This document shows, piece by piece, positions 10,002-56,723 of a stretch of DNA of 64,000 nt. The stretch lies in the NCBI GenBank assembly GCA_965216465.1, contig CBDCFW010000006.1, positions 326,440 through 390,439 of the forward strand, in the 5' to 3' direction. The stretch is from Bacteroidia bacterium (GTDB lineage: Bacteria; Bacteroidota; Bacteroidia; NS11-12g; UBA9320). The translations under genes and the position numbers were made by a program. Position 1 is the stretch's first letter. Each line of letters starts with the position of its first letter. The notes under the pieces were generated by a model, which was given only the letters and a program-made list of their open reading frames with translations, had not been told where the DNA came from and did no database searches.

Positions 10002-10009
10002 TTATGCTT

Positions 10010-13283: not shown

Positions 13284-13298
13284 TTAACATTCAACAAT

Positions 13299-21074: not shown

Positions 21075-21147
21075 ATAACAATTTACTCAAATTTTTATGA
21101 CACAAATGGCTCTTGATTAGCTGTTTATAGTTCTATATTTGGCGCCG

Positions 21148-28372: not shown

Positions 28373-28414
28373 TATTGAATTAGACCCCTCAATGTGAAAT
28401 GGTTGCAAGAATAA

Positions 28415-37376: not shown

Positions 37377-37955
37377 ATGAATAGATCAAAGAACGGCTTA
37401 ATTACTCTTTCATTAATCATCACTTGTTGTTCAGGTTTAACTGCTCATGGGAAAAAGTTTGATGCCGAAAGAAAAAATGGGACCCTGGTACCTAAAATTC
37501 ATAAAAACTTTGAATTTGAAGAATCCAAAAGCTACGATCATCATATATCTGATCATAGAGGTTGCTTCTACCTTACCTATGATAGCATGGAAGTGCAGAT
37601 TAACCAAATGCTAAAAGAGAGTGCCCTGTTCGACAGTAAAAATGACATGCACAAAATGGCATCTGGCGTTATGATTAAGGTTCGAAAAAATGGAAAGATT
37701 AAGAAGATTGTCTGGATTGAAAACCCTAAACCAAACAGACCAATTGAAAAAACTCATCAACAACTAATTTCAGAATACTTAATGACCTTACGTTGGACTA
37801 GAAATGCGTATGTAAACAAGGATGGAAAGAAAGTTATTCTTAGAGAAATACCATTCCAATTCATGATTGATGATTGTGGATACATAAAGCTTTTCGATTC
37901 AAATTCATTTAAAGATCAAGACATCAACTTATTGGATTGTCCCTTTGTTCTCTAA
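37377..37955 (+). CDS. Secreted hypothetical protein.
   Basis: The ORF is 192 aa with the signal peptide MNRSKNGLITLSLIITCCSGLTAHG. Confidence 0.45.
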   Translation: MNRSKNGLITLSLIITCCSGLTAHGKKFDAERKNGTLVPKIHKNFEFEESKSYDHHISDHRGCFYLTYDSMEVQINQMLKESALFDSKNDMHKMASGVMIKVRKNGKIKKIVWIENPKPNRPIEKTHQQLISEYLMTLRWTRNAYVNKDGKKVILREIPFQFMIDDCGYIKLFDSNSFKDQDINLLDCPFVL

Positions 37956-38006: not shown

Positions 38007-39488
38007 CTATTTGATGTTCACCACATCAACAAAGTACATGTCAACCTCTCCTTTTCCTTTTGCCTGTATCTTGCCGCGATGCTCAAATTTCAAGTCTTCA
38101 TCATCTTTTAATAATTCATAGGTGTAGTGAGAAATATTAATCCTTCCAACTTCTCCATGGGACTCCATTCTTGAAGCCGTGTTTACAGCATCTCCCCATA
38201 TGTCGTACTGAAATTTCTTAACCCCAACAATTCCAGCAACAACTGGACCCGTATTAATGCCAATTCTCATCTGAAATGGAGTTTTGCCTAGCCTTTTTCG
38301 TTTATCATGATCGTTCATTATAAACTGCTTCATTTCAAAGGCCGCAAGTATGGTATTTTTCACAGAATTGGCATCCGGAACAGGAATTCCCCCAGCAGCC
38401 ATATAAGAATCTCCTATGGTCTTAATTTTCTCAATATTGTATTTGTCACAAATAGCATCAAATGCCTTGAAGCAATAATTAATATCAGCTACCAATTCTT
38501 CTGGACTTAGCTCCTGAGACATCCGTGTAAATTCCTTAAAATCAGTAAACAAAATTGATACAGAGTCAAATTTTCTTGCGACTGCCTCCCCATTTTCCTT
38601 TAACTCATCTGCAATTTCTGAAGGCAAAATATTAAGCAACAACTTGTCCGATTTGTGCTTCTCTTGCTCGAGTGTTGATTTACTCTCATCCAAAAGTTCA
38701 TAGATTTTTACATTGTCTAAAGCAACGGCCAAATACGAAACCAAGGTTCTTAGAAAGTCTAAATGATAACTGTTATAAACTTCTGCAATCTTACTTTCAA
38801 CAGAAAGAGCACCCAATTTACTATCGTGAAGTGAAAAAGGGATACACATGATTGCTGCAGGATTGTAGGACCCGTCTAAGGAAGCAATGGGGTCAAATAC
38901 ATATTGACTGTAGTCCTCAACTGCGTTGTTTAAAAAAGCTTCTTTTCCGTTATCAAGACACCATTCTAGAATAGAGCTATTCTCTTTAGAATGAGGAGGT
39001 CTATCAAGCTTTCCGTCTTTATTGACCCTTATGGTATGTGCAGTAGAATCGGTATAATACAGCAAGTTAAGATTCTCAACTTCCATACTTGAAGAAACAT
39101 ACGTAAAGAGGATTTGAAGGATGTGCTCTACATCTAAACTTCCCGTAATCTCTTTACCTATTTCGGTAAGCAAGGTAATTTGTGAAAGTGAACTTTCAAC
39201 GCCTTTAAGTTTCTGATCTAAATTTTTCTTCTCTTTTGTTTCAGAATGTAAACTTAGATTATCCTTCTTGGTTTTAGTATACCGACTTGCTAGCTTATTA
39301 AAATCAGAGGCTATTTGACCCAATTCACCGTTACTTTCAAACGTCACTTTTACAAGTTCCTCTTCTTTCACCGCAAAACTAGTTTTGCTGTTAAGCTCCT
39401 TGATTTTTCGTCTGAGCATCAAGTATCTACTAGTTATAATAACAGCAAACAACAACGCAACTGAAGCAACGATTAGGGGTAAACTCAT
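38007..39488 (-). CDS. Membrane-anchored class III adenylate/guanylate cyclase with a GAF-like middle domain.
   Basis: It has an N-terminal TM helix. The C-terminal CHD region reads VSILFTDFKEFTRMSQ...IGDSYMAAGGIP...MRIGINTGPVVAGIVG..FQYDIWGDAVNTASRMES. Confidence 0.75.
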   Translation of the reverse strand: MSLPLIVASVALLFAVIITSRYLMLRRKIKELNSKTSFAVKEEELVKVTFESNGELGQIASDFNKLASRYTKTKKDNLSLHSETKEKKNLDQKLKGVESSLSQITLLTEIGKEITGSLDVEHILQILFTYVSSSMEVENLNLLYYTDSTAHTIRVNKDGKLDRPPHSKENSSILEWCLDNGKEAFLNNAVEDYSQYVFDPIASLDGSYNPAAIMCIPFSLHDSKLGALSVESKIAEVYNSYHLDFLRTLVSYLAVALDNVKIYELLDESKSTLEQEKHKSDKLLLNILPSEIADELKENGEAVARKFDSVSILFTDFKEFTRMSQELSPEELVADINYCFKAFDAICDKYNIEKIKTIGDSYMAAGGIPVPDANSVKNTILAAFEMKQFIMNDHDKRKRLGKTPFQMRIGINTGPVVAGIVGVKKFQYDIWGDAVNTASRMESHGEVGRINISHYTYELLKDDEDLKFEHRGKIQAKGKGEVDMYFVDVVNIK

Positions 39489-39551: not shown

Positions 39552-42506
39552 TTGAAAATGATTAACCCCTTTCCTGGTCTTCGGCCTTTCGATTCTTCAG
39601 AATCTGAATTGTTTTTTGGGCGAGAAAGGCACATTGGTGAAATCCTAAGAAAACTAGATACCTACCGCTTTGTCTCCATTGTGGGCAACTCAGGAAGCGG
39701 GAAGTCATCGCTGGTTCGAGCAGGCTTACTTCCTTATATAAAAAAGAATCGGAACGATTGGACAATATGCAGCATGAGGCCGGGATCTGATCCCATTGCT
39801 GAATTATACGCAACTTTAACCGAATCTAAAGTTATAGATGATGAAAAAGGACTATCAATCCTGGGAAAGCATGCTCTTGGTTTGGTTCAACTTTTAAGGC
39901 ATTCACTTCAATCTAAAAGTATTCTGATTCTCGTAGACCAGTTTGAGGAACTATTTCGATTTAACGCAAGTAATGACGACGAAGAACAAGAAAATGTAGC
40001 CAGCAAGTTTGTTGATCTTCTTCTAGCTTCAGCAGGCCAAACTGATGTAAACATCTATATTGTATTAACGATTCGATCTGATTTTCTTGGAGACTGCGAA
40101 CAATTTCAAGGCCTCCCAGAAGCGATTAATGATGGTCAGTTCTTAGTGCCAAGAATGAATCGCGAAGAAATGAGAAGTAGTTTGATCAATCCCGTGAAAA
40201 TTGCTAAAGGAAAGATCTCGCCGCAATTAGTTCAGAATCTCCTAAATCAAGTCGGAAACAGACCGGACCAACTTCCAGTGCTACAGCATGTTTTAATGCG
40301 TAGTTACAATGTGTGGTTAAACTCAAATGAGCTTGAACAACCATTAGGCATGGAGCACTATGAGGCTACTGGAGGAATGAATGAAGCTCTATCAAGACAT
40401 GTAGATGAAGCGTTTTCGGAGCTAAACAAGAAACAAAAGAAACTGGCCGAAATCATTTTTAAAACGGTTACCGTTAAGGGGTCAGATAATCGGGGTATTA
40501 GAAGACCAACAAGCGTTGCTAATTTGGCAAAGATTGCCTCGTGTTCTGAAACCGATATTATTTCCACAACTGAATTTTTCAGAAAAAGTGACCGTGGATT
40601 TTTAATGCCATCTCAAGACGTTGAACTAGCAAGCTCCAGTATCATTGACATCTCCCACGAAAGTTTGATGAGAAAGTGGATTACGCTAAAAAACTGGGTG
40701 GATGAAGAGGCTCAATCAGCAGAGTTATTTAAGCGAATAAGTGAGAGTGCCCTATTGTATGAAGAGGATAAAGCAGGTTTATGGAGAGACCCTGATTTGC
40801 AAATTGCAAAAGATTGGATGGTTTCAAATCAGCCGAATGAGTACTGGGCAGCACAGTATAATCCACATTTTAAGTCTGCCGTACGGTTTTTAGAAGCCAG
40901 TGACCAACAGAAAAAGTTTTTGCTTGCAGATAAACAACGTAAACGAAAAATTAGAAACATCACCGTAGTTCTCGTATTAATTGCTTTATCTGCCATTAGT
41001 CTGTGGGCTTTTAACGAACGAAACAATGCAGAAAGTAATGCTGCAGAGGCCTTAGAACAAAAGAAACAGGCAGACGAGCAAAGACAGAAAGCTGAGACCA
41101 ACTTCTCTTTAGCTAAAGAACAAGAAGAAATTGCAAATCGAGAGAAGCAGGAGGCTGAAAATCAACGTCAGCAGGCAAACCGAAGCGCTGCTGAAGCTCA
41201 AGCTTTATCAATAGTTGCTCAAAATGAAGCAGCAAAATCAAAACTAGCAGAGAAACAAGCAGAACTTGAGCGAGAAGTAGCCCTACATCAAACTCATATT
41301 TCGGATAGTCTTCGCATACAAGCAGAACTTGCCACAGAACAAGCTCAACAATTAAGACTTCTTGGAGTGTCAAAAAACTTGGCAATTCGTTCTAAAATTA
41401 TGGATGATCGTCAATCCGCCGAACTGAAAACTCTACTGTCGTTACATGCCTTCAAATTAAATCATGAGAACAAAGGAAATGCTTTCGATAAAGACATCTT
41501 TGAGGCTATTCATCAGGCTTATAACGCTACAGAACTTAAGGGCAATCCACCTTTAAGAATTCATGCAGATGAAGTACCATCAATTGCGATAAGTAGCTCA
41601 GGTATGTGGGCTAGTGCAGGGAATGATGGTAAAGTGTACCTAACCAAGAATAATGGAACACCGCAGCTGATTTTAGAAAATGAGCATGTGCTCGACAATG
41701 CCACCTTTTCACCAAACTCAACCCATCTTGTAGTTTCGGATGAACAGCATAGTCTTCATATTTTAAGTCTTGATGCAAGTGATAATGTACAGGATTATGA
41801 AACAGGACAAACCAATAAAATCACCCGATTACTGTGGATCGACCAGTACATTTACAGCTTTTCGATAGACAAGTCTATCGTGGTTTTCGATGCTCAAACA
41901 AATAGCATGAGTAGAAAAATTCAACTTTCTGTAGAACCTCATTCTGCGATTGCCTTATCAGCTGAAACTATTATCATTGGTTCTGCCAATGGAGGCATAT
42001 ATCAGCTTGATCTAAACACTGATCAACTCAGTAAGATTACCAATGTAGCAGGCGGTGCAATTGTTACAGCTGTTGATGTATCTAGCGATAATAATATTGC
42101 ATACGGTACTAGTAAAGGACAATGTGGGATTGTTTCTCCATCAGGCAATCTCTTACGAACATTTAATGGTCATGGGGCTAGAATATCAGCAATACGTTAC
42201 CACCCAACCGATAAACTCATAGCTACAGCTTGTTACGACGGAAAAGTTAGGCTATTTAACACGATAGAAGTCAGCCAGCCAGCCATAGAATTTGATGATC
42301 ACAGCTCATGGGTTTTAGATCTTAATTTTACAGCAGATGGACGATTCCTCATTAGCACAGGTAAAGATAAGAATGTAGTAAAGAACCCAATATCCTTGGC
42401 TCACATGGAACAAAATTTGCGTCAAGCAATTACACGAGATCTTACGATGGATGAATGGAAATTTTTTGCTGGCGAAGGATTGCCTTTTGTTCCTTTGAAA
42501 AAATAA
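39552..42506 (+). CDS. STAND-type P-loop NTPase with an internal TM helix, a coiled coil and a C-terminal WD40-like beta-propeller.
   Basis: The N-terminus PFPGLRPFDSSESELFFGRERH...FVSIVGNSGSGKSSLVRAGLLP is the nSTAND signature. A hydrophobic helix ITVVLVLIALSAISLWAF sits at about 40950-41010. A Q/E/A-rich coiled coil spans about 41020-41350. WD40-like repeats (GHGARISAIRYHPTDKLIATACYDGKVRLFN) run to the end. Confidence 0.7.
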   Translation: MKMINPFPGLRPFDSSESELFFGRERHIGEILRKLDTYRFVSIVGNSGSGKSSLVRAGLLPYIKKNRNDWTICSMRPGSDPIAELYATLTESKVIDDEKGLSILGKHALGLVQLLRHSLQSKSILILVDQFEELFRFNASNDDEEQENVASKFVDLLLASAGQTDVNIYIVLTIRSDFLGDCEQFQGLPEAINDGQFLVPRMNREEMRSSLINPVKIAKGKISPQLVQNLLNQVGNRPDQLPVLQHVLMRSYNVWLNSNELEQPLGMEHYEATGGMNEALSRHVDEAFSELNKKQKKLAEIIFKTVTVKGSDNRGIRRPTSVANLAKIASCSETDIISTTEFFRKSDRGFLMPSQDVELASSSIIDISHESLMRKWITLKNWVDEEAQSAELFKRISESALLYEEDKAGLWRDPDLQIAKDWMVSNQPNEYWAAQYNPHFKSAVRFLEASDQQKKFLLADKQRKRKIRNITVVLVLIALSAISLWAFNERNNAESNAAEALEQKKQADEQRQKAETNFSLAKEQEEIANREKQEAENQRQQANRSAAEAQALSIVAQNEAAKSKLAEKQAELEREVALHQTHISDSLRIQAELATEQAQQLRLLGVSKNLAIRSKIMDDRQSAELKTLLSLHAFKLNHENKGNAFDKDIFEAIHQAYNATELKGNPPLRIHADEVPSIAISSSGMWASAGNDGKVYLTKNNGTPQLILENEHVLDNATFSPNSTHLVVSDEQHSLHILSLDASDNVQDYETGQTNKITRLLWIDQYIYSFSIDKSIVVFDAQTNSMSRKIQLSVEPHSAIALSAETIIIGSANGGIYQLDLNTDQLSKITNVAGGAIVTAVDVSSDNNIAYGTSKGQCGIVSPSGNLLRTFNGHGARISAIRYHPTDKLIATACYDGKVRLFNTIEVSQPAIEFDDHSSWVLDLNFTADGRFLISTGKDKNVVKNPISLAHMEQNLRQAITRDLTMDEWKFFAGEGLPFVPLKK

Positions 42507-42587: not shown

Positions 42588-43805
42588 TTGGCACTGCATA
42601 TTGTGACGCGTTCTCCTCTATATCTTTTTTTATTCTCTATCCTTCTTTCCTGCACAAAGGTGAGTGTACCCACTCAAGAGCAGAATGCGATTCGTTTCTA
42701 TGCTAAGCCAGAAATAAGTAAAATAACGAAGGTGATTACCAGCAGAGATGGCGATTATCTAATGGTTGGCAAATCTATTAAAGGGCCCATTCTTTTGGTA
42801 CTTGACCATGAGTTAAAGGAAAAATCGTACACCGTGTATGAAGATTATTGGCCAGGTCAGTTTAATGATGTTATTCAACGTAAAGATGGAACAATTGTAA
42901 TGGTCGGTCATACTATGTCAGAAGAATATGGAGCAGGAGAAGATGACCCTAATTTTCTTGCGGTATCAACAGATATTAACGGTAAGTTGATCTGGCAACA
43001 CCACAAAGATTGGTATAATTTCAATACATGGAATCGGGTTAAGGAAGATGAGGATGGTACGCTCTACTTAGCGGGAGAAGCGCTTGTCACCACATTGGCA
43101 GGCTATAGTGGGATTTTAAAAACAAATGCCGATAGTGTAGACTCCTTTATTGGGGCGATGTGGCTCACAAACATGTATAATCCGTTCAATGAAGCATTAA
43201 TAAGGGCGAATGACGTGGTGTTTTTTGGCTACGAATATGCCAACAACAACACAGGACCTATTAATGGGTTGGCACTCGTTCGATCAAAAACCACATTAGA
43301 CAATTATAGTAAAGTGTTGTATGACCAAGTTCCAAGTAATGCTTTTTTTAAAGTTCGAACAAATCAAAAGGGTGATGTACTTCCGGTTGCGGGTGGGTAT
43401 TTAATGGCTCATAATTTCTATAATGGATATATCACACCGTACTTGCGCTTAGTTAAACTTGATCAAAGCTTGAATGTAGATTGGGCTAAAGATATTGACA
43501 TAAACGATGCCTTCATCCTTTCTTCAATCCAGGAATTCGATGGGAATATTCTAATCTCAGGAGCGACAAATAGAGCGAATACCGAAACATTGATAAATTC
43601 TAAAGCGTATGTTGGATTGTATACTCAAGATGGAAATTTAATATGGGAGCATGAGTATGGGAGCAATGAACTCAACAACAAAGCAGACTATGTAACGTTC
43701 GAAAACGATAAACTTAGCGTATTAGCTGTAAATAAAAATAGCGAAAGTGACTTTCAATTTTTCACTTACACTTTAAACCTGAACGGAGAACTTCAAGTAC
43801 CATGA
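42588..43805 (+). CDS. Paralogous lipoprotein, type I (pair 1).
   Basis: The lipobox is LLSCTK. The motif ILLVLDHELKEKSYTVYEDYWPGQFNDVIQRKDGTIVMVGHT is shared with 48328..49548 and 50173..51393. Confidence 0.6.
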   Translation: MALHIVTRSPLYLFLFSILLSCTKVSVPTQEQNAIRFYAKPEISKITKVITSRDGDYLMVGKSIKGPILLVLDHELKEKSYTVYEDYWPGQFNDVIQRKDGTIVMVGHTMSEEYGAGEDDPNFLAVSTDINGKLIWQHHKDWYNFNTWNRVKEDEDGTLYLAGEALVTTLAGYSGILKTNADSVDSFIGAMWLTNMYNPFNEALIRANDVVFFGYEYANNNTGPINGLALVRSKTTLDNYSKVLYDQVPSNAFFKVRTNQKGDVLPVAGGYLMAHNFYNGYITPYLRLVKLDQSLNVDWAKDIDINDAFILSSIQEFDGNILISGATNRANTETLINSKAYVGLYTQDGNLIWEHEYGSNELNNKADYVTFENDKLSVLAVNKNSESDFQFFTYTLNLNGELQVP

Positions 43806-45067
43806 ACCATTCGATAAAATATATAGTTGTGATCCTGCTCATGGTGTTGGTTTCTGCCTGCGAGAAGCAGATACAATTGAATCGCGAAACAGATTCGTAT
43901 ATCCATGTTTTCAACGAGCTTAATGGTTCTATTACGGGTATTCATTTACTTGATGATCAAACCATTCTTTACACGGTCATGGAAACAGCCTCAAATGGAG
44001 CCGACTACAACAATATTTTTTTGGGAAGATATGATGAAAAAAGTGATAATTCTTGGCACCAATTCATTGGCAAAAACGAGGGTTTTAATGGTAGAATAAC
44101 AAGTCTTCGTGATTCTACGTACCTGGTATCTTCTAACTTAGGACCAAAAATCACGCGGTTTAAAGCCGATGGATCAATACTATACTCACGTAATTTTAGC
44201 GAATTCATAAGTAATGGAACGTGGGTCTCAAAACCTGTTCTAGACGAAAACAATGACGTCTATATTTCCGCTCGTAATGGTGCAAAGGCTGGTGTTATTT
44301 ACAAACTGAACCATCAAGGGGAAGGTCAATTGATAGCTTCGGTAGGTTCAACCGTTCCTTTACCCAGTTCAAATATTGTGTTGCGAAGTCTTGTAGACTT
44401 TGAAGTCATTCACGTTCAAAATGGAATCGCCGCAGTGCGATGTACGTGCAGACCGTATCTAAGTGGTGTTGATTTTTATACCAATCAAGTGTATTTATCT
44501 ATTAACTTGACAACTGCAGAAATTCTGAATTGGAATTGGATGACTAATCGGCCACACAAACCACCCATTCAATACTTTGAAGACGAAAAAACAATGGGTT
44601 TTTCGGTGCGGTCTATTTCGTTAAATAATCACATTTATGGTGTGGTCGGAGGTCCAACATTTCAATTAGATCCTAAGTACGGTTCAGGTTATCGAAGTTT
44701 TAGGCTTCAAAAGCTTAGCTTGGATATGGATAGCATTTGGATTAAAGAGTTTGAGTTTGAAACGGACCAACTCTTTTTATACGACGTCATGGCTATGTCT
44801 AATAATTCTATTCTAGTAACGGGTTCTAATATCTTGAACGGAATAGAAAAGGGCTTCTTCATGATATTAAATGAAGATGGCGAAATTGTCTTTGAACAGT
44901 ATGCTGTACCAAAATCAACTGGGTTTATAAGTGCAGCAGAGAGTTCAAATGGTTCGCTACATTTCGGCGGCAGCGTGCTTGCGTGGGGCCAGGGTACCAG
45001 CCAGTATCAGTTTAAGCCCATGCTTATTAAAACAAACAGGCAAAGGGAATTTGCCTCAGAACAGTAG
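43802..45067 (+). CDS. Paralogous lipoprotein, type II (pair 1).
   Basis: The lipobox is LVSACEK. Its start overlaps the type-I stop as ATGA. It resembles 47111..48331 and 51398..52684. Confidence 0.6.
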   Translation: MNHSIKYIVVILLMVLVSACEKQIQLNRETDSYIHVFNELNGSITGIHLLDDQTILYTVMETASNGADYNNIFLGRYDEKSDNSWHQFIGKNEGFNGRITSLRDSTYLVSSNLGPKITRFKADGSILYSRNFSEFISNGTWVSKPVLDENNDVYISARNGAKAGVIYKLNHQGEGQLIASVGSTVPLPSSNIVLRSLVDFEVIHVQNGIAAVRCTCRPYLSGVDFYTNQVYLSINLTTAEILNWNWMTNRPHKPPIQYFEDEKTMGFSVRSISLNNHIYGVVGGPTFQLDPKYGSGYRSFRLQKLSLDMDSIWIKEFEFETDQLFLYDVMAMSNNSILVTGSNILNGIEKGFFMILNEDGEIVFEQYAVPKSTGFISAAESSNGSLHFGGSVLAWGQGTSQYQFKPMLIKTNRQREFASEQ

Positions 45068-46081
45068 TTATTTACTAATTCTATAAGATATGGGGAAGTT
45101 AAAATTTATCTGAAAACTTAAATTCCTCAGCATTAATTCGTCTCCAATGTACAGTGACGTTAATTCAAAGTCCAAATCATCTAAATGAGTTTCAGGATTG
45201 GCCATAGTATTGGTAAAATGATCGTACTGCACACGAAAACCAAGCTGACCAAAAATCAGATCTTTTGAAACACCAGCATGAGCACCGACAAAGAGCTGAT
45301 TTTTGTTTCTACTCGGCATTCCATCAGAGCTATACTGAATTTTATCGTTGCTTTGCAAAGATTCATGCGTAACCAATCGATGGTCTGAAAGCAGGTAGCC
45401 ATAGCCTAAGTGCGGACCGCAACTCCAATTTAATTTATTATCTAAGCTTCCTCTATAATCAAGTGCTACACTTCCTGCGATTAAGCTGTAGCGCTCTTTG
45501 TACAAGATGTCGATATTGTCTATGCCTCTTAAGTCATGCTGTATGCTTCCTCCTTGATTAGACACTCGTATATCAAGATCAAATTTGTCATTTATTCTTT
45601 GGGTATAGTTGAATCCAAACATGTATCCCCCTGTGGTTCGATACTTATGCTCACCTTGGTTGTAAGGATTCAAGCTGCGCTTCACTTGGACACTATTCGC
45701 TCCCAAACCTGCAAAAAAGCCAAGTTTAGAAGAGGGAACAACGGTGTAAGAAAGAATCAATTGGCTTAAGGCCCGAGGATCTTGTCCTTGAGTGTAGTTT
45801 GCATAGTTAGGACGCTCTTTAAAAAGTGCTTCAATAGCTTCTTCGGCTTTGTCTTGATTGTTTAATGCAATATAGGTTAGAGCCAGAAGACGCTGGGCTT
45901 CAAAACGTTCGTCCGAATTTTCAAAACTTGACATACAATTTTCTATACGTTTGACGGCCTCATTTAGCTCTCCATTCTTGTATAGTTCATTGGCATCAAC
46001 CAAGGCATTGTTACAGTCTAGGGCAACCGCTGAAAATACCAAGCAAAGTGCTAATAGAGTATGGGAAATTCTTTTTTTCAT
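45068..46081 (-). CDS. Outer-membrane protein with an N-terminal TPR-like domain and a C-terminal beta-barrel (paralog A).
   Basis: It has a signal peptide, TPR-like helices (EAQRLLALTYIALNNQDKAEEAIEALFKE), then alternating beta-strands to the C-terminus. Confidence 0.5.
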   Translation of the reverse strand: MKKRISHTLLALCLVFSAVALDCNNALVDANELYKNGELNEAVKRIENCMSSFENSDERFEAQRLLALTYIALNNQDKAEEAIEALFKERPNYANYTQGQDPRALSQLILSYTVVPSSKLGFFAGLGANSVQVKRSLNPYNQGEHKYRTTGGYMFGFNYTQRINDKFDLDIRVSNQGGSIQHDLRGIDNIDILYKERYSLIAGSVALDYRGSLDNKLNWSCGPHLGYGYLLSDHRLVTHESLQSNDKIQYSSDGMPSRNKNQLFVGAHAGVSKDLIFGQLGFRVQYDHFTNTMANPETHLDDLDFELTSLYIGDELMLRNLSFQINFNFPISYRISK

Positions 46082-47106
46082 TGCGTAATTACTTGATAGT
46101 TAAAAATAATAGAGTATCCGACGTTAAAAGACAAAACGTGAATCAAGAAATCGTCATCTAAATGATAATACCCCTGCGAAACGGCGGGATAATCATATCG
46201 TGCATCACCATTGTTGATTTGACGTAATGAATGCTTGTAGTTTACCTCAAGACTTACTAACCCTGGACCAACCTGTTTAACAGCTCCCAATCCAACATTC
46301 CCACCATAAACCAATCGGTTTCGTTGTGATATCATACTTACCTGTTCTAGCGAAAAGGACTCATTCAATGTATTGTCGTCATAGTAAAAACTAGAATTGC
46401 TTCCTAAGAGTAATTCTCCATAAGCTCCGGCATATACATATGGCTTAAACCAATTTGACACCTCTGGAGAAAAGCGAACACCTAGCGGAAGCACCCCGTA
46501 GGTCAATCTTTCATCCATAGATAGACTTAGATTGGAAGAAGAATAGTCAATACCGTAGTTCTGAATTGATGCCTGCAAGGCACCATAGATGCCCCATTTC
46601 GTGTTAATCTGATAAACCGAAGAGAAGCCCAATGAATACCCTTGTTTTCCGGAATAGGTCTTTTGGTCATTTTCTATAACCGAATAAACCTTCTGTACTT
46701 CGGGAAGAGTGAGATTTGTACCGGCGGAAATGGATAGTCCAACGCTTAGCTTCGGGATAACCGTTATTCCTTCAATTAATCGGATAAAATCTTTAGGATC
46801 GTTTAGCAAACTGGGTTCAAACAGGGGGTCGATGTTGAGTAATGCAATCGCTTCGCTACGAGCCTGAGGTAGTTGATTTAAGCCCAAATAAGCCATGGCC
46901 CTAAGTCTGTGTACATTTACATTGTCATCGCACGTTTTTAGGGTGTCGAGCATTTCTTGCAGTTCGCCGTAATCGTACATAACACGAGCACCTTCAATGC
47001 GATCTGCGCAATTCTGAGCAGAAATACCGGCGGATACGCAAAGCAACAAGACCACGCCAAATATCTTTGTTAAAAATTGCTGTTTAGTCGGGTTAGTCAT
47101 ATTCAT
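46078..47106 (-). CDS. Outer-membrane protein with an N-terminal TPR-like domain and a C-terminal beta-barrel (paralog B).
   Basis: It has the same layout as 45068..46081. The likely start is MNMTNPTKQQFLTKIFGVVLLLCVSAGISAQ at 47106. The 4-bp overlap with the downstream gene suggests coupling. Confidence 0.5.
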   Translation of the reverse strand: MNMTNPTKQQFLTKIFGVVLLLCVSAGISAQNCADRIEGARVMYDYGELQEMLDTLKTCDDNVNVHRLRAMAYLGLNQLPQARSEAIALLNIDPLFEPSLLNDPKDFIRLIEGITVIPKLSVGLSISAGTNLTLPEVQKVYSVIENDQKTYSGKQGYSLGFSSVYQINTKWGIYGALQASIQNYGIDYSSSNLSLSMDERLTYGVLPLGVRFSPEVSNWFKPYVYAGAYGELLLGSNSSFYYDDNTLNESFSLEQVSMISQRNRLVYGGNVGLGAVKQVGPGLVSLEVNYKHSLRQINNGDARYDYPAVSQGYYHLDDDFLIHVLSFNVGYSIIFNYQVITQ

Positions 47107-47110
47107 ATTT

Positions 47111-48331
47111 TTACTTCCAGTTTTCAAGTTTTCCTTCTTTAGTGAGTTTAACAACCACCGCTTTAGGTCGATATTTATTTAAGCCTAAGCCCATATCTCC
47201 AGTCGTTCCAGCTATAAGATAACTTCCGTCATCAAGTTTAATAATATCGTTAAATTCTACTCTATCCGGGAAATCATTGGATGTAATGACAATGTTTCCT
47301 GCTTCATCAAGTTCCGTTATGAAAGGAGTGCTAGACTGAGCGTTGTCACCACATATAACGGCACCTCCCTGAGGCAAGCCATTTATATTAGCTGGGGAAC
47401 CATCTAATTTTTTAGACCACAGCTTATTCATCACAAAGTCCGTTTGATGAACCGTATAATTTCTCATATAAGAACGATAAAGATTGTGGTCTATCGATAA
47501 ACGATCTATATCAAGTCCAAGACTGTAAACCATACCATTCGTGATAACCGGATTTTTTGGATGAGCAGTAGGATACTCATGTTTTACAGAAACAGTATCA
47601 GTTAGCACCTTTGTTCGAAGAATTTCACCTGTATTCAAGTTAACCGCATATAACATCCGGTACACTGTCGGGTAAAATTCAAAAGAGGTAGCATCCAAAT
47701 ACGCCGTGTCTTCTTCAATTCGATATAAAGACTCTATTTCTCGCTCTGAACTTCCATCAGAAAAAGTCGTAACAATTTCTACATTTCCATCTAGGGTAAA
47801 TGCTATAATATAGTTTTGTTTCAAGTTTTTATGGCTAGAACATAAATAGAATTTGCCATCAGGACCAATTATCGGTTCCGAAAACTGACTAAATTCTGGA
47901 GCATTAAAATCTAAGTTTTGTATGGTATTAAGAATTTCGCCTTCTGGGCTAAAATGAATTATTCGCCCTGTGCTCTGCCTTTGGCTTACTAAAATGCTTC
48001 CATCTGGCAACAACATGCAATTCATTTGAGTATAAAACAATCTTGATTCCGACTTAAGCTTTTTTTCCCAGAGAACGTTTCCATATACATCGGTCATCAT
48101 CGCAAAAATGGTATCGTTGTCGTTTGAAGCATTATCCGTATTTCTTCCTAAAAAGAAGTATTGATCGTCTGATACTTTTAAAACTGAGGTGAAGAATCCA
48201 TTAAACTGGTTATAGGTTTTTATGTATGACGAATGAGCATCTTTTAACCCAACTTCTTTTTGACAAGAAATCTGCAGCATCACAAATACCACCAAACTAA
48301 AAATGAGCTTTATGTTTTTCGTAATCATCAT
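47111..48331 (-). CDS. Paralogous lipoprotein, type II (pair 2).
   Basis: The lipobox is QISCQK with recurrent DGS(I/L) beta-blade-like motifs. It overlaps the upstream type-I gene by 4 nt. Confidence 0.6.
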   Translation of the reverse strand: MMITKNIKLIFSLVVFVMLQISCQKEVGLKDAHSSYIKTYNQFNGFFTSVLKVSDDQYFFLGRNTDNASNDNDTIFAMMTDVYGNVLWEKKLKSESRLFYTQMNCMLLPDGSILVSQRQSTGRIIHFSPEGEILNTIQNLDFNAPEFSQFSEPIIGPDGKFYLCSSHKNLKQNYIIAFTLDGNVEIVTTFSDGSSEREIESLYRIEEDTAYLDATSFEFYPTVYRMLYAVNLNTGEILRTKVLTDTVSVKHEYPTAHPKNPVITNGMVYSLGLDIDRLSIDHNLYRSYMRNYTVHQTDFVMNKLWSKKLDGSPANINGLPQGGAVICGDNAQSSTPFITELDEAGNIVITSNDFPDRVEFNDIIKLDDGSYLIAGTTGDMGLGLNKYRPKAVVVKLTKEGKLENWK

Positions 48332-49548
48332 TTAACAGGCATTTTTACTTGACCTTTACTATCTAAAACATATCGAGTTAATGAGCTCTGTTTTGTCTCG
48401 TCGATAGTTTGAACGAGTACCACTAAATCCTCCCCCTCGGTTGTTGAACCCATAGCTAGCTGAAACAACTCAGTAGATCCTAAAGGGGCATTCCATTGTT
48501 CTAATCCTTCTCGGTTTATGAACTGCACTATCGCCTCTTTGGGAGAATAAATACTAACAGAAAAATCATGTGACTTAGTCGCTCCCAAAATCACATAACC
48601 TTCCCTATAGGAATTCATTTCTTGAAACCTAAAATAACCTTTTGATATATACCCATTTCGGTCTTTTTCTTTTGTCATTTGAGCAGTCATATGATTTAAT
48701 ACAACAGACCTACGGTACGGTGAAGTGGTTTGAAGTTGGTGAGCAAACATATAGCGTTGGTTTGGTAAGAGAATGGTCTTGCTTCTTAGATTTACATGCC
48801 GTTCTAAAGGACCATTTCCAAGCTGATTTACTCCCATTCGATCTCCAATTCCTATCAGGCTTAAGTCGGTACTTGAAACCTTTTGAGAATACATTTGCAC
48901 CACATAATGAACTCCTAATTGAGCTGCTACCTGGCACAAAATTTCATCGTTGTTTATCTGTATAATATCTACAATATGAGATTGAAAATTAGGGTCTGGG
49001 TGGTCCGATACTGTTATGATAGTATCTGAAGGGCTATATTTAGCCAAGAGCTGTCGTGTTTCTCCGACTCCGGTTCTACCTGCAACAATGAGGGAACCGT
49101 CTGAAGCTTCAATAACACTTAGCCACTGTTCCAAGGCACCAGAGTCAGTTAGCACCTCATTAAGTATAACTCCTTCTTGATTGATTGTGCACAGCAACGC
49201 TTTTGAATCTCCAAAGTCTGCTCCTTTTTCCAGAGCAAGTGTGTAGCCCACGGCCACATAATCTCCATTTGCTTTTTGAATAACATCGGTAAAATTTCCG
49301 TTATGGTATTCCGGATATGTTTGGTGAAATTTGGGTTTAAGATCAGCATCCAACACAAGAATAGTTGGAACATCATTAGAAGAACCAACAACTACAAATT
49401 CGTTGTCTTTGTTCACAATGGTTTTTTCCATTCGATCAAAGTCTGCACATCGGTAAATTTTGAGCTGATTTGAATCAAGCACTTGCTCCTGACGTGTACA
49501 AGAGAAGAGGTTAGCAACAAGGATTATTATGATAAATCTATTGATCAA
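48328..49548 (-). CDS. Paralogous lipoprotein, type I (pair 2).
   Basis: The lipobox is LFSCTR. TILVLDADLKPKFHQTYPEYHNGNFTDVIQKANGDYVAVGYT parallels the pair-1 type-I protein. Confidence 0.6.
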   Translation of the reverse strand: MINRFIIIILVANLFSCTRQEQVLDSNQLKIYRCADFDRMEKTIVNKDNEFVVVGSSNDVPTILVLDADLKPKFHQTYPEYHNGNFTDVIQKANGDYVAVGYTLALEKGADFGDSKALLCTINQEGVILNEVLTDSGALEQWLSVIEASDGSLIVAGRTGVGETRQLLAKYSPSDTIITVSDHPDPNFQSHIVDIIQINNDEILCQVAAQLGVHYVVQMYSQKVSSTDLSLIGIGDRMGVNQLGNGPLERHVNLRSKTILLPNQRYMFAHQLQTTSPYRRSVVLNHMTAQMTKEKDRNGYISKGYFRFQEMNSYREGYVILGATKSHDFSVSIYSPKEAIVQFINREGLEQWNAPLGSTELFQLAMGSTTEGEDLVVLVQTIDETKQSSLTRYVLDSKGQVKMPVK

Positions 49549-49653
49549 GTTTGAGGTTATACCGTTAACAGTCTTTGCAATATAACGATTTAAAAAACAA
49601 CCGATAACTCAATGCAAAAATGAGAGTTGCATATTATTTACTATCTTCCACCA

Positions 49654-50076
49654 ATGAAGTATGGTTTCTGGGTTCTGATTTGCGTGTCTTTATTGTTTGG
49701 TTGTGCAACCGAGCAAAAAGTAGAGCCCATGGAAGCAGAAGACCTTTTAACCTTAGATGGTTGGTGGCCTGTTTATGCATTTCAAAATGGCATTGAAACA
49801 CCGTTAGCCTCATGCAGTAAGGAGATAGAAATCTTTTATCGTCTAGATGGAACAGGAAGCCGTCATAGATATACCCCATGCGACACATTGGATCCAGCAC
49901 AACAAGACTTTGAGTGGGAACTGATTAACAACAACCACCAAATTGTTATCATAAATAATGGCGTAAGAGACACGAACACCATTGTAAAATTAACCAAAGA
50001 CGTATTCAAGGTTAAGTGGGAGCTTGACCAGTTTGGCGGTATTGTTGAAGTTTTAGAGCTTGAACTTCGTCATTGA
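49654..50076 (+). CDS. Small lipoprotein (lipocalin-like size), hypothetical.
   Basis: ATG at 49654 gives MKYGFWVLICVSLLFGCATEQ. The protein is about 140 aa. Confidence 0.45.
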   Translation: MKYGFWVLICVSLLFGCATEQKVEPMEAEDLLTLDGWWPVYAFQNGIETPLASCSKEIEIFYRLDGTGSRHRYTPCDTLDPAQQDFEWELINNNHQIVIINNGVRDTNTIVKLTKDVFKVKWELDQFGGIVEVLELELRH

Positions 50077-50172
50077 AGGGCAACGAAATTTGCATTTTTT
50101 TCAAGGTCTGAAAGAAAACTTGCCTGATTCTATTCAAAAAGTAGTTGTATTTATTTCACCTATATTTGTTAG

Positions 50173-51393
50173 ATGCAGGTTACCCCTAAAATTTTGAAAT
50201 TGCTATTAGTTTCATTGCTCTGGGTATCGTGCAAGCCTGACAAAATTCCTGCTGAAAACCAAACAATTCGTTTACATAACCAACATGAATTCGATGACGT
50301 GCGTAAGGCTATACACATGTCAGATGGTAGTTCTGTATACATCGGAGTGAGCGGTGGTCAACCCTCAGTTCTAGCATTGAACAGTGATTTTAGTCTGAAG
50401 TATTTTAAACGATTTTCTGACTATGGACCAGGAGGTTTTAATAACGTATGTGAAATGACTAATGGTGATATTGCAATAGTGGGCTACACCAATTCTTCGA
50501 CTCTTGGTGCTTCTGCAGCAAATAGAAATGCTTTGATGATCCGCATAAATCAAGAAGGCGATTTCATCTCATATTTCACGGATACAACAAACAATGCTAA
50601 CGATCAATTTACCGCAGTTAAAAGTTTGCAAAATGAAGAGCTACTTTTATCTAGCTATTCAGGAACCCGGGTAACCACATTCCAGCTCAATGCAAATTCA
50701 AAGTTAGTGAATAGCCGCAAGGAATGGTTTAACGGCAATGAGGTAAGAGAAGGCTATTGCAATTCGTTATTTACAGCACCGAATGGCAAATATGTTGAAA
50801 TAGGAAATCATACAGTCAGTCAGTTGTCTACCGCGATGACTTTATATGCTATCGAAATTTATGCCGATCAGCTTACAAAACCTAACAATTTGAACACCTA
50901 CCGTGCCTATAATCCGAGGTCTTGGAACAATGTTGCTAAGTTTGCACCAATTCGAGGAGAAGCATGTCCATCAGAAAACAACGGAGGCTTATTTTATGGA
51001 ACTACTAATTTTTCAGACAATAAATATTCTATATTACTTTTAGGAATGCATAACGCGGGGGGCATCTATCTTGAACGCCAGTTCTATGGAAATGGTCAAG
51101 CCGTTTTTCAGAATATGGTACCTTTTAGCAAGGGGTATCTTTTATTAGGTTCTACCGTAGACTCAACCAAAAGTTTTCAAGCGAACACCTACGACACCTA
51201 CATCGCTGCCATAGATGAACAAGGCAACTTATTATGGGAACAAACCATCCATTCTGAGTCAAGAGGTGAATCGGCACTTTCGGCACACGAAGAAGATGGA
51301 ATTATCAGAGTCTCTGGCTTTACACAAACCAAAAATTCGAATTTTAGCTTTTTACAAGTATATCACGACATCAATGGCAACTTAATTCATTAG
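50173..51393 (+). CDS. Paralogous lipoprotein, type I (pair 3).
   Basis: The lipobox is WVSCKP. SVLALNSDFSLKYFKRFSDYGPGGFNNVCEMTNGDIAIVGYT matches the type-I motif. Confidence 0.6.
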   Translation: MQVTPKILKLLLVSLLWVSCKPDKIPAENQTIRLHNQHEFDDVRKAIHMSDGSSVYIGVSGGQPSVLALNSDFSLKYFKRFSDYGPGGFNNVCEMTNGDIAIVGYTNSSTLGASAANRNALMIRINQEGDFISYFTDTTNNANDQFTAVKSLQNEELLLSSYSGTRVTTFQLNANSKLVNSRKEWFNGNEVREGYCNSLFTAPNGKYVEIGNHTVSQLSTAMTLYAIEIYADQLTKPNNLNTYRAYNPRSWNNVAKFAPIRGEACPSENNGGLFYGTTNFSDNKYSILLLGMHNAGGIYLERQFYGNGQAVFQNMVPFSKGYLLLGSTVDSTKSFQANTYDTYIAAIDEQGNLLWEQTIHSESRGESALSAHEEDGIIRVSGFTQTKNSNFSFLQVYHDINGNLIH

Positions 51394-51397
51394 AATC

Positions 51398-52684
51398 ATG
51401 AAATACGTCTCTTTTAAAATATTCACTTTAATCCTATTAACCGTTGCAGCAAGTTCATGCAAGAAAGATGACGTAGCGGATCGAAGCAGTGGTCTGTTTG
51501 CCGGAATTTACGAGCACAATGGAAGCAATGCAACTAACGAATTAATTCCGTTTAATTTGAGTTGCGCAATTGAAAGCAGTACAGGGCACCTGTATACCAC
51601 ATCAACAGAAAATATCTCCCCAGATATATTCTTAGTCGTTATGAAAACAGATGCCGAAGGCAACAAAGAATGGATTAAAAGCTATCCTGTGCTTAGACGA
51701 TTGGATACCAATATTTGGAACATCATAGAGTTGGAAGATGGTACACTTTTTATAAACTCAAGAAGAACAGATGAAATTTTGAGAATTAATTCAGAAGGAG
51801 ACATCATCTATCATAAAACGTTTATCGATGATTGGGATAACGAACTGCAAACCGAAGCCATCTCAGAACCATTGGTTCAGGAAGACGGCACGCTGTATCT
51901 TTCTGCACGTTATAGTGGATCCAGATTCAACCCTCCCACTAAAGTAAAAACGGTTTCAATAGACGAAAATGGTGATGCAATTGTCCTTCAGCAGTGGACT
52001 GATGAGAATTTTGCGACTATACTATATCACAATGTGGTATATGTTGATGTTGCCAACGATTCTGTATGGTATATCAGTAGTGCACCGGTTAAACAAGGTA
52101 TAAATTCAACAGTACTGTTAAATTTTCATCAACAAAATCTTGGAGAAATTCCGACGGGTTGGTCTGATATGCTTTCGCCTCCAGAAGATACCGCAAACAA
52201 TTTGGGAATTGTGCCCAATCATAGTTTAAGCGGTCCGCAACGCCACGGAACGGAGTTGCTTGTGTTATCTTCTCCTGATTTAGCTTTTGGAGTACCAATT
52301 CCAAATGGAAATCCAATTCGGTTTTGCAGATCTACAATTGATTGGGCAGCTGATGTTTATAAGGAGCGGAAATTAATTCATCATCCCACTTATTCTTATA
52401 GTGCTCGTTCGTTTACACGGACCGAAGAAGGCGAGTATTATATCTGTGGTGTAGTTGATCAAGGACTTCCTTCAGAAAAAGCATTTTTGGTAAAGCTGAA
52501 TAACGATTTAGAAGTAGTTTTAGAAAAATACGACTATGATGAAACATATCGGTTTAACCATATCAGCATGTGTGAAGATGGTAACTTACTAATTTGTGGC
52601 TACACCATTGGTTCGGGGCAAGGAAATGACACCAAAACTAAATGGAACTTACTTTGTCGTTTGGATGCTGATGGGTCATTATAG
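51398..52684 (+). CDS. Paralogous lipoprotein, type II (pair 3).
   Basis: The lipobox is ASSCKK. It begins 5 bp after the type-I stop. EDGTLFINSRRTDEILRINSEGDII resembles the type-II blades. Confidence 0.6.
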   Translation: MKYVSFKIFTLILLTVAASSCKKDDVADRSSGLFAGIYEHNGSNATNELIPFNLSCAIESSTGHLYTTSTENISPDIFLVVMKTDAEGNKEWIKSYPVLRRLDTNIWNIIELEDGTLFINSRRTDEILRINSEGDIIYHKTFIDDWDNELQTEAISEPLVQEDGTLYLSARYSGSRFNPPTKVKTVSIDENGDAIVLQQWTDENFATILYHNVVYVDVANDSVWYISSAPVKQGINSTVLLNFHQQNLGEIPTGWSDMLSPPEDTANNLGIVPNHSLSGPQRHGTELLVLSSPDLAFGVPIPNGNPIRFCRSTIDWAADVYKERKLIHHPTYSYSARSFTRTEEGEYYICGVVDQGLPSEKAFLVKLNNDLEVVLEKYDYDETYRFNHISMCEDGNLLICGYTIGSGQGNDTKTKWNLLCRLDADGSL

Positions 52685-52829: not shown

Positions 52830-55207
52830 TCACTCCTTAACCCACCTTCCTCTATACACCCCATTATCGTTACGTATTTCCACTATGTATATACCTGAAT
52901 CAAGTCCTTGAACATTTATGGAATTTGAAAAGAGCTGTTTAGTCATAACCAAAGCTCCTTGTAAGTTATAAATGCGTAATTCTCCCTGATGGATATCGCC
53001 TACTTTGATAAAGTCAATACCAGGATTAGGATATAGTTTAAGATTTTGGGGTGTTTGCTCAATTCCAGCACCACTTATCACCGTGATGGTTATTTCTGCA
53101 CTAGAGGAACATCCAAATTTATCTAATACGGTTACCGAGTATGTATAATCTCCATGTGTAAAGTCTTGTCCAACAATGTTCAAGGTATCAAAGCTATCTT
53201 GTGTATTCCAAGCATAGTTTACAAATCCTTCTCCTGGGGAGAGTTTGGCTGAGCTGTCTCTAGGAAGTTTGAAATCCCCGCCTAAACTTATGTCTTGAGG
53301 TGTATGCACATGAATGGTTGCGGTATCCGAATAGAAAGCATCCCCACATTGATTATACCAATAAACACGATACCTGTCTCCACTATCAGAATCCTGCAAA
53401 CTTGAGAAAGGAAATTTTGAAGTGTTATTCGAAGCACTTAAAAAGGCTGAACCGTTGTCACTCTTTTCCCAAAGACTTGTTAGATTTACCCCTCTAGCAA
53501 TACCGGTTAATGTATCACTCAATGCTTCGCATAATTCAATATCCGCTGGCATCTCTTCAACGTCTATTCGATCAGCCAAAGCTTGTACTTCAAAAGGCCC
53601 TATATCAGATGTATCATCCCATATTCTTTCGTATCCGTTAAGATCACTTAGCTTACTAAGAATGTCTGCATGAACACTTCCTTTGTAGTATATTGGAATA
53701 GGCTGTGCGTAACCTTTATTAAAACCGTATGGCCGTCTTGAGCATGTTTGAGTAAGCGTGAAATCACCATTTGCCGTATCTTTAAATTTTGGATAATCTT
53801 CTAAGCAGTCTTGGTATACCCCGGAAAATGTAAAAGTAGAATCAAATCGGTCTTGGATGGTGCTTGTTCCTCCGCCGAGTATACAATTGTAAAATTCACT
53901 TGGCACTTTATTTCCTTCATCAATAGATAAATTAACAACATCCCCGTAATAGTTTCTATTGTTCCAAAATATGCAGTTGTAAAACTTAAAATGGGCGTTA
54001 TCTACATATTCTGCAGCGCTTGAGTTTCTTGGGTAGGTAGTATTATCTGTAGGACTTTTCCACTTTCTGTAATTGTTTACAAAGGCACAGTTTATCATCG
54101 TTACATCTTCAGTCGTCGTAATCCCTATTGAATTTCTTGTAAACAGACAATTAATTATTCTTGCATGACTTACATCGCGAATAAGCCCTATTGCTCTTCT
54201 ATTATTTATGAATTTACAATTGTATATCATTGATGCCGATGCCTCCTTCCCCCCAATACACCCTGCAGTAGTCGTACTGTTCTTAAATGTACAATTCTGA
54301 ATCACGCCTTTAGTGCAATTCCTAGTAAACGACACATCACCAGCAAATATTGATTCTCCAAAGGTTCCGTCGAATGTACAGTTATCAACCACTCCTGTAA
54401 AATCAAACAAGCGAAGAGTGGTGAACTCATTATTTTTGAAATAACAAGATGTAATATTCGCAAGTTTTGATAAACCTATGGCATCGGAATAAATGTCTTG
54501 AAAAAAACAATTTTCGATGTTGAATTCTTCTCCATTAGTAACTTCACCAACAGATATGCCTGAATAGCAATTTATAAATGTGCAATCAGAAACTTTGAAA
54601 TTTCCTCGTAGTAAAATTCCAGATGTCAAGTTTTTTGAAATGGAATAGGACCCAAACGGTTGATTGTCAAAAAACTTACAATCTGACATCCAGCAATCAC
54701 CGTCTCTGACATCCACTCCACTATTCACTCTTCTAAACGTACTGTTCTTAATTCTAAGTGGTGAAGAAGCCATGCTTTGTATTCCAACAGAGCGAATAGA
54801 AGAGTTAAAACCCGGTTGTTTTAGCCAGGTGAATTGTCTATTTGATGAATGGGTATACTCAACTAGGCAATAATCGAAAGAATTAGTATCGCTATCTGGA
54901 TTGTTAACAATAACAACTCCACCCCAACCAACTAATGAGTCAGAACATGTAAGCATAATTTTGTCGCTTGAAGTCCCAATACATTTGATGTTTCCTCTTA
55001 CTATCAGTTTTACCGTATCTGCGAAGTCCATAGTCACACCAGCTTCAACTATTAATAAACTGTCTGCTGGCACAGTTACATTGTCAGAAACATAATATGG
55101 GCTACTGGCCTTGGACAGTGTTCCTGAGAGTGTACCTCCAGAAATTGTAGTCTGTGCAAAGTTTAAAAGTGGTGTTAAGAGTAAAAATAGTAAATAGAAG
55201 TTTTTCA
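52830..55207 (-). CDS. T9SS cargo protein with right-handed parallel beta-helix (pectate-lyase-like) repeats and a Por C-terminal sorting domain.
   Basis: The start is at MKNFYLLFLLLTPLLNFAQ (55207). NC(T/K/L/A)F..N... repeats resemble PbH1 units. The CTD is YPNPGIDFIKVG...GIYIVEIRNDNGVYRGRWVKE. Confidence 0.7.
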
Positions 55208-55325
55208 TACGTCGAATATAATTATTTAACAATGTTAGAATTAAGTTCGAAGAAAAAATCATCTTAATGTCTAGGTTGTGAGTTAGGAGAATGACCAGAA
55301 AAATTTTTAGAAATAATCCCCACAA

Positions 55326-56649: not shown

Positions 56650-56723
56650 CGGTCTGGACGGGACTCGAACCCGCGACCCCCTGCGTGACAGGCAGGTATT
56701 CTAACCAACTGAACTACCAGACC
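56650..56723 (-). tRNA. tRNA-Asp (anticodon GTC).
   Basis: The minus-strand sequence is GGTCTGG-TA-GTTC-AGTTGGTTA-GAAT-A-CCTGC-CTGTCAC-GCAGG-GGGTC-GCGGG-TTCGAGT-CCCGT-CCAGACC-G, which is the canonical bacterial tRNA-Asp. Confidence 0.9.

Follow-up and report, generated by a model that had tools for sequence, protein, structure and literature searches.

The question raised by this locus is what a compact cluster of lipoprotein and outer-membrane protein genes, lying directly beside the genes for a STAND NTPase and a nucleotide cyclase, might do in the cell envelope. The cluster belongs to a 64,000-nucleotide stretch of contig CBDCFW010000006.1 from a Bacteroidia bacterium (GenBank assembly GCA_965216465.1), and the whole of this stretch is referred to here as the window. 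Six lipoprotein genes form three pairs, labelled A, B and C, each with a type-I member (suffix 1) and a type-II member (suffix 2), and they are accompanied by the genes for two outer-membrane proteins (OMPs), OMPa and OMPb. The original prediction, made from the letters of the DNA, saw here a lineage-specific expansion of surface proteins that was possibly linked to the adjacent STAND/cyclase pair. The system is real and is linked to STAND and cyclase genes, and it is not lineage-specific. Types I and II, together with two OMP classes termed OMP-B and OMP-A, very probably constitute an unnamed conserved outer-membrane module of Bacteroidota-type bacteria. As to function, the reading preferred here, put forward tentatively and short of being called probable, is that this module is wired to the STAND NTPase and the cyclase as a trans-envelope signalling or surveillance system.

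The open reading frames (ORFs), their junctions and BLASTP comparisons agree on three coupled type-I/type-II pairs and two paralogous OMPs (Table 1). The partners of each pair overlap or nearly overlap, as had been noticed: ATGA start/stop overlaps, read from the sequence, form the A1/A2 junction at 43802-43805 and the B1/B2 junction at 48328-48331, and 4 nt separate the C1 stop and the C2 ATG. A third ATGA overlap, at 46078-46081, joins OMPb to OMPa. The B pair had been described as continuing by 4-bp overlaps into both OMP genes, which is correct for that OMPb/OMPa junction but not for the entry into OMPb, where 4 nt separate the B2 stop and the probable ATG at 47106. The order of the resulting minus-strand operon, B1→B2→OMP-B→OMP-A, is also the order found in one of the loci recovered from elsewhere (L039, below). 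At its far end the operon meets the A pair with convergent stops and, as predicted, zero bases between them, the A2 TAG ending at 45067 and the reverse-strand TAA of OMPa beginning at 45068, and the STAND gene lies 81 bp upstream of A1 in the same direction. Scans for sigma-70 promoters and terminators gave results at or below shuffle expectation, the sigma-70 model being uninformative for Bacteroidota.

Table 1. Genes of the cluster and its nearest neighbours in the window, with the basis of each assignment or a remark.
Feature	Coordinates	Strand	Basis or remark
Membrane-anchored GAF + class III adenylate/guanylate cyclase	38007-39488	-	Divergent from STAND gene; Pfam
STAND: nSTAND1 NTPase + transmembrane helix + stalk + WD40	39552-42506	+	Pfam
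A1, type-I seven-bladed beta-propeller lipoprotein	42588-43805	+	BLASTP, AlphaFold2 model, Foldseek
A2, type-II predicted propeller lipoprotein	43802-45067	+	Overlaps A1 by 4 bp; BLASTP, hhalign
OMPa (OMP-A class): signal peptide + TPR-like helical domain + small beta-barrel	45068-46081	-	
OMPb (OMP-B class)	46078-47106	-	Probable start ATG 47106; ORF reaches TTG 47154
B2, type-II predicted propeller lipoprotein	47111-48331	-	BLASTP
B1, type-I propeller lipoprotein	48328-49548	-	Leads the operon into OMP-B and OMP-A
Small lipocalin-like lipoprotein	49627-50076	+	Upstream of C1; Pfam Lipocalin_4 E 2e-3, sub-threshold
C1, type-I propeller lipoprotein	50173-51393	+	41-42% identity to P0009 (L032 type I)
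C2, type-II predicted propeller lipoprotein	51398-52684	+	47% identity to L032 type-II partner

All-versus-all BLASTP of the window proteins sorted the six lipoproteins into two families, with type I matching type I at E 3e-15 to 2e-25 (22-29% identity) and type II matching type II at E 1e-6 to 2e-11. On this similarity, which lies far above chance, the six are real but old paralogues. All of them carry a signal peptide and the lipobox Cys that had been claimed, with A1 doing so only from a TTG start at 42588, which provides a lipoprotein N-terminus (window 42588-42662) resembling those of its paralogues. The public record for A1 (P0008, 381 aa) begins internally and is devoid of both elements; P0081 and P0011 appear truncated at the N-terminus in the same way. 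Behind the lipobox Cys, the Bacteroidota surface-export signal reads C-X-K-(D/E)2 (PMC5080379). Lys is present at position +3 in 13/13 type II proteins and Lys or Arg in 19/27 of type I, and an acidic residue follows at +4 in 7/13 and 12/27, respectively. Two consecutive acidic residues occur in few members only, such as C2 (CKKDD), which is alone among the window lipoproteins in having the full motif, and an L032 protein (CNKED). Given this incomplete motif, the lipoproteins, originally described as surface proteins, are no more than possibly exposed on the surface.

None of the six gave a Pfam or NCBIfam match above threshold, in accord with the earlier view that no named family applies. The family was recovered only by an exhaustive HMMER search, in which a profile of the three window type-I proteins was run against 1.84 billion representatives; word-indexed searches started from B1, from aligned type-II proteins or from 30 aligned type-I sequences gave nearly only the window proteins and a few partial matches. 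The 613 proteins found by HMMER at E<1e-10 were of two kinds, namely several dozen full-length lipoproteins of ~400 residues that align end to end, and many long multi-repeat proteins, of which those tested bear SBBP or PQQ_2/BamB-type propeller repeats (P0028, for instance, matches PF06739 at E 1e-50). In a 30-member alignment of the type-I family, invariance or near-invariance is confined to Gly, Trp and the lipobox Cys and no conserved polar catalytic residue is present, a structural repeat pattern that favours a binding scaffold over an enzyme.

The beta-propeller fold that had been suspected was borne out by an AlphaFold2 model of A1, obtained with a predicted local distance difference test score (pLDDT) of 81.5 and a predicted TM-score of 0.81, in which the strands group as seven four-stranded blades. 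The weak region of the model, residues ~170-260 (blades 4-5), is the indel-rich variable part of the alignment. When the model was compared with the PDB by Foldseek, the propeller of CylK ranked first (E 8e-13, TM-score 0.69-0.70), and further matches were to the clathrin N-terminal domain, BamB (9cnw_B, TM-score 0.49, rank 7) and the seven-bladed PLL/PHL lectins. The type-I profile also matched solved CylK chains at E 1e-35, through the propeller repeats, in 4-5 stretches. A 13-member type-II alignment proved collinear with type I over 378 columns (hhalign 99.8%, E 1e-29). The two types, originally presented as different, thus stand as two families with conserved pairing but not as separate kinds. 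By these profile comparisons, both are distant homologues of one seven-bladed SBBP/CylK-like propeller fold, and type II would share the seven blades modelled for A1.

The two OMPs are related to one another (BLASTP E 3e-17), and each had been assigned an N-terminal tetratricopeptide repeat (TPR) domain and a beta-barrel. The barrel was upheld by a match of OMPb to Pfam OMP_b-brl_2 (PF13568) at 31.7 bits, above the cut-off of 27; the same family matches the OMP-B of L039 at 60 bits and OMPa at 20.3 bits (E 6e-4), under the cut-off. The TPR assignment fared less well, as the matches in OMPa (E 3e-4 to 5e-2, among them TPR_19 at E 3e-4, with 21.5 bits where the cut-off is 25) are all sub-threshold and the Pfam scan gave no TPR match in OMPb, though the region aligns with that of OMPa. 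This N-terminal helical region of ~90 residues contains two Cys (C23 and C49 of OMPa) that are invariant in seven orthologues spanning both classes and that probably form a periplasmic disulfide. The barrel part, of ~220 residues, has ~8-10 amphipathic strands as counted from residue alternation. A sequence search of the PDB with the OMP profile gave no meaningful match. In Dma1, a trans-envelope anti-sigma factor of Bacteroides, PF13568 barrels of 8 strands act as outer-membrane anchors (PMC10927553).

How far the module extends beyond this genome was addressed with hidden Markov models (HMMs) built for the two lipoprotein types and for the OMPs, which were run over all fetched loci. Type I was found directly followed by type II in ~11 unrelated metagenomic locus groups with 1-4 pairs each (L001, L002, L009/L030 with three pairs, L028 with four, L032/L033, L034/L035, L036, L038 with two frameshifted pairs, L039 and L040/L041), and a scan of contigs with a second pattern yielded, besides generic repeat proteins, a single full-length pair (in L002). 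The notion of a lineage-specific expansion had to be abandoned. The sole exception to the pairing is a solo type-I gene (P0015) in L037, where the region 10001-13477 holds this gene, without a type-II partner, followed by a PAS gene and then a gene for a PAS-PAS-class III cyclase; this is a second, different association of the type-I family with a nucleotide cyclase.

OMP homologues abut I-II pairs in nine locus groups, the window and eight others. They fall into two orthologous classes, OMP-B always preceding OMP-A across a junction of 4 bp or 1 bp; identity to the window OMPa is 38% in L034, 30% in L040 and 29% in L009, and identity to OMPb is 44% in L034, 39% in L039, 38% in L040 and 37% in L009. 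The arrangement I→II→ ←A←B is seen in L034, L040, L032, L009, L028 and L001, and I→II→B→A in L039. Both are present in the window, as A1→A2→ abutting ←OMPa and as the operon that starts with B1. In L028 a 315-aa predicted lipoprotein (3154-4101, minus strand) with a Gly- and hydrophobic-rich C-terminal region lies between the first and second I-II pairs, matching no module HMM and no Pfam family. The L002 contig, CAZUIT010000026.1, is labelled 'uncultured Burkholderiales', yet has an I-II pair and a gene with the C-terminal domain (CTD) of the type IX secretion system (T9SS), features associated with Bacteroidota, and may be misbinned or mislabelled.

The partners have also diverged together. 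Across 15 pairs, the identity matrices of type I and type II correlate with a Pearson r of 0.95, which was reached by 0 of 5000 Mantel permutations. Both members of window pair A are nearest to those of the L034 pair (23% each), pair B is nearest to the L036 pair (20-21%) and pair C to the L032 pair (42% and 47%). The congruent neighbours and the correlation indicate that the pairs were inherited and duplicated as units, and since an orthologous pair exists elsewhere for each of the window pairs, the three represent ancient subfamilies and no recent lineage-specific burst. Neither of the two outcomes that were to refute the original prediction came about: the pairing is conserved across the copies, and the proteins belong to no well-characterised family. 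Between the window and L039, identity falls from 53% for the cyclase and 49% for the STAND protein to 39% for OMP-B, 29% for OMP-A and about 20-28% for the lipoproteins, so that conservation marks the signalling and scaffold parts, and the lipoproteins either evolve fast or are swapped. Receptors or exposed binding proteins typically show such a combination of a constant scaffold, here the OMPs, with fast-evolving partners.

The proposed link to the adjacent STAND and cyclase genes gained support from these other loci. A STAND gene adjoins the module in the window, in L039 and in L009/L030, three lineages in all, and a divergent GAF-cyclase gene does so in both of the lineages that show this flank, namely the window and L039. 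In L039, a leftward cyclase gene is followed by STAND→I→II→OMP-B→OMP-A, the latter five codirectional; its STAND protein is identical at 49% over all 984 residues and its cyclase, at 53%, has the same divergent position. Cyclase–STAND fusions occur in mycobacteria. In L009/L030, the genes STAND→OMP-B→OMP-A converge with three I-II pairs, and the STAND protein is more distant (29% identity, E 1e-48, over stalk and WD40), with the transmembrane helix, the stalk and the positive flank conserved.

The domain structure of the window STAND protein bears directly on how such a link might work. The nSTAND1 domain (PF20703, E 2.3e-90) covers residues 6-406 and the WD40 repeats (E 7.5e-20) residues ~690-984, and between them are a single hydrophobic helix (466-490), with a net flanking charge of +5 N-terminally and -1 C-terminally, and a helical stalk segment of 110 residues in which A/E/Q/K/R/L make up 74% and Pro and Gly are absent. 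By the positive-inside rule, these flanks would place the NTPase in the cytoplasm and the stalk and WD40 in the periplasm. Pfam showed no effector or adaptor domain at the N-terminus, where the NTPase domain starts with residue 6. The cyclase has a Guanylate_cyc domain (E 2e-58), a GAF_2 domain (E 1.5e-8) and one N-terminal transmembrane segment at residues 1-25. The nSTAND1 clade was defined from bacterial conflict systems (Kaur et al. 2021, PMC8195603); in a test for such systems, no PADLOC system matched. A Pycsar assignment was tested as well, where PycC models matched the cyclase weakly (E 1.6e-13, as against 2e-58 for the generic Guanylate_cyc model) and no effector gene was recognised.

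These elements can be assembled into a mechanism, which is offered as doubtful in its particulars. The two small OMP barrels would anchor periplasmic TPR-like domains in the outer membrane as a constant scaffold, on which the I/II propeller pairs, fast-evolving and present in 1-4 copies, would dock as variable subunits for binding ligands or partners. The inner-membrane STAND protein would hold its WD40 domain on a helical stalk of ~16 nm in the periplasm, where it might contact the outer-membrane complex, sense its state and switch the cytoplasmic NTPase. As the STAND protein has no effector domain of its own, the NTPase would act through the partner GAF–class III cyclase, giving a cyclic-nucleotide output and an outside-in direction of signalling.

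Several points weigh against this signalling reading. A periplasmic WD40 domain in a STAND protein would be unusual, and the placement is based solely on topology rules. The complex itself is putative, and the partial export motif could put the lipoproteins on the cell surface, beyond the direct reach of a periplasmic WD40 domain. In L034, L040 and L002, the 10 kb around the module hold no STAND gene; the outer-membrane module therefore has a function of its own, with STAND and cyclase as recurrent accessories. No PADLOC defence model matched the lipoproteins or OMPs. The OMP structure prediction, made from two sequences, reached a pLDDT of 35.6, with helices 26-112 at modest confidence, and because this model failed the barrel size rests on the amphipathicity count.

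The main competitor is a display system like that of Slam, which is judged unlikely but not remote. Here, the TPR-barrel OMPs would export or anchor the neighbouring lipoproteins on the cell surface, the propeller pairs would be variable adhesins, lectins or nutrient-capture proteins, and the STAND/cyclase genes would be regulatory or unrelated. The putative TPR-barrel architecture of the OMPs parallels Slam, which combines a periplasmic TPR domain with a beta-barrel and is encoded beside its lipoprotein substrates (PMC5449769). The basic residues at +3, with an acidic residue at +4 in about half of the proteins, recall the lipoprotein export signal (LES) of Bacteroidota (PMC5080379), but the full signal with two acidic residues is confined to few members. 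The faster divergence of the lipoproteins relative to the OMPs is expected of exposed proteins, the PLL/PHL lectins are among the Foldseek neighbours, and the loci in which the module occurs with no STAND gene would also suit such a role. Against it, the Pfam scan of the OMPs gave no DUF560 match at E≤1, and the barrel, at only ~220 residues and belonging with PF13568, whose Dma1 examples were modelled as 8-stranded (PMC10927553), appears too small for a pore. Slam substrates bear a TbpB-like 8-stranded barrel domain and no propeller, Slam is known from Proteobacteria only (PMC5449769), and the surface lipoproteins of Bacteroidota use a general export pathway that needs no substrate-specific OMP.

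Two further explanations are less likely than either signalling or display. In the first, which is improbable, the proteins would form an envelope biogenesis or tethering complex like BAM or Tol-Pal, with the STAND protein as a TolA-like energised stalk. The similarities that suggest it are the BamB fold match of A1, the PQQ_2/BamB models matched by multi-repeat relatives of type I, faint matches of the OMPa TPR-like region to BamD and YbgF (E 2e-3 to 4e-2) and the transmembrane helix with long helical stalk of the STAND protein, but all such matches fall far under the family cut-offs and a genuine BamA (POTRA + Omp85) is encoded elsewhere in the window, at 7500-10001. Moreover, 1-4 pairs per locus, very fast divergence and a patchy distribution are ill-suited to a housekeeping machine, and the nSTAND1 clade was described from conflict systems (PMC8195603). 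An enzymatic role for the propeller lipoproteins on envelope or extracellular substrates, such as that of CylK-like alkylating enzymes or other SBBP catalysts, is highly improbable, for while CylK is the closest solved structure both by profile and by fold, the match is limited to the propeller repeats, the CylK N-terminal domain is absent, the 405-residue protein is filled by signal peptide and propeller, and the 30 aligned members share no polar residue fit for catalysis.

The surroundings of the cluster are chromosomal and Bacteroidota-like, with several genes for T9SS C-terminal sorting domains, BamA and housekeeping genes. The source genome is poorly sampled, as even a UDP-glucuronate decarboxylase-like window protein is a singleton at 90% identity clustering. 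A scan of genome contigs with a pattern that fits C1 exactly gave no match, the source genome included, and an exact-sequence look-up of protein P0001 hit no contig. Just upstream of the cyclase are a SUFU-domain protein (PF05076, E 6e-42) at 36614-37342 and, after it, a 192-aa protein with no family match at 37377-37955. T9SS sorting domains are found in three window proteins, 52830-55325 (minus strand), 21139-24042 (plus) and 27245-28408 (minus), the first of which has 831 aa and is convergent on C2; T9SS-CTD genes neighbour the module in L002 too, and in L034, where one lies 12 nt upstream of type I. These proteins were considered as module components and rejected, the window and L034 ones being unrelated to each other. 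The lipocalin-like gene upstream of C1 has a weakly similar counterpart (E 6e-4) in L034, where a Lipocalin_4 gene (5683-6141, minus strand) lies ~4 kb from the module; it may be an accessory component or a coincidence, and its membership is uncertain. A 597-aa neighbour of the L034 module was examined as a STAND relative and rejected as not related. A 665-aa protein at 24336-26333 (plus strand) has a central LpxR-like (lipid A 3'-O-deacylase) domain and is unusually long for that family, and two tRNA genes, at 717-789 (plus) and 56650-56723 (minus), are all that Rfam identifies in the window at gathering threshold.

The accepted picture of STAND/NLR proteins is that of sensors in the cytoplasm. 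If the signalling reading is true, a STAND protein with its repeats outside the cytoplasm, tied to an outer-membrane complex and a cyclase, would extend the STAND model to envelope surveillance and may represent a new route for passing signals across the cell envelope. A speculative form of this idea is an undescribed trans-envelope STAND system, an NLR-like receptor that would respond to what happens at the outer membrane or surface (phage, toxins, neighbouring cells) and not in the cytoplasm. An array of interchangeable propeller pairs on two dedicated TPR-barrel OMPs, monitored by an extracytoplasmic WD40 domain, belongs to the same reading and is held to be just as conjectural. The module in any case defines four unannotated families, two of propeller lipoproteins and two classes of TPR-like barrel OMPs, which offer a tangible candidate for a so far unknown complex of the outer membrane in a phylum that differs from Proteobacteria in its envelope biology. 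Outer-membrane lipoprotein/OMP complexes and STAND signalling are already known kinds; the combination seen here is new.

Among known systems, Slam/DUF560 (type XI secretion, in Neisseria and other Proteobacteria) is alike in the design of its OMP, with a periplasmic N-terminal TPR-type domain (a putative one in the window OMPs) plus a beta-barrel at the C-terminus, in the position of the OMP gene next to the lipoproteins it serves, and in having paralogous OMP copies with different lipoprotein partners. It differs in that its barrel has 14 strands, as against a PF13568 barrel of ~220 residues with no DUF560 homology, and here two OMP classes per module accompany seven-bladed propeller lipoproteins, which are not TbpB-like, in a Bacteroidota host. 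The CylK/SBBP repeat proteins (PF06739) share the homologous blade repeats and the seven-bladed propeller, but the window proteins are lipidated, have ~400 residues with hypervariable blades 4-5, reach no Pfam SBBP threshold, and are devoid of the Ca-binding N-terminal domain and conserved catalytic residues. With BAM (BamB, BamD) and Tol-Pal (TolB, CpoB, TolA) there is a common theme of propeller, TPR-like element and barrel at the inner face of the outer membrane, and of an inner-membrane protein whose long helical stalk would reach outward. The similarity is only at fold level or sub-threshold, however, with seven blades instead of the eight of BamB, no PQQ_2 match for any window lipoprotein, a separate BamA, variable copy number and fast divergence.

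Dma provides a precedent in Bacteroidota for trans-envelope signalling with a small OMP_b-brl_2 barrel as the outer-membrane element. In Dma, a single polypeptide crosses both membranes and releases a sigma factor, whereas in the window different proteins make up the outer- and the inner-membrane element, and the part in the cytoplasm would be a STAND NTPase plus cyclase. Finally, the nSTAND1 NTPases of conflict systems (PMC8195603) have the same order of an nSTAND1 domain followed by C-terminal WD40 repeats. The window STAND protein departs from them in having no N-terminal effector or adaptor domain, in the transmembrane helix and stalk inserted between NTPase and WD40, by which the repeats are predicted to lie outside the cytoplasm, and in its linkage to an outer-membrane lipoprotein/OMP module and a GAF-cyclase.

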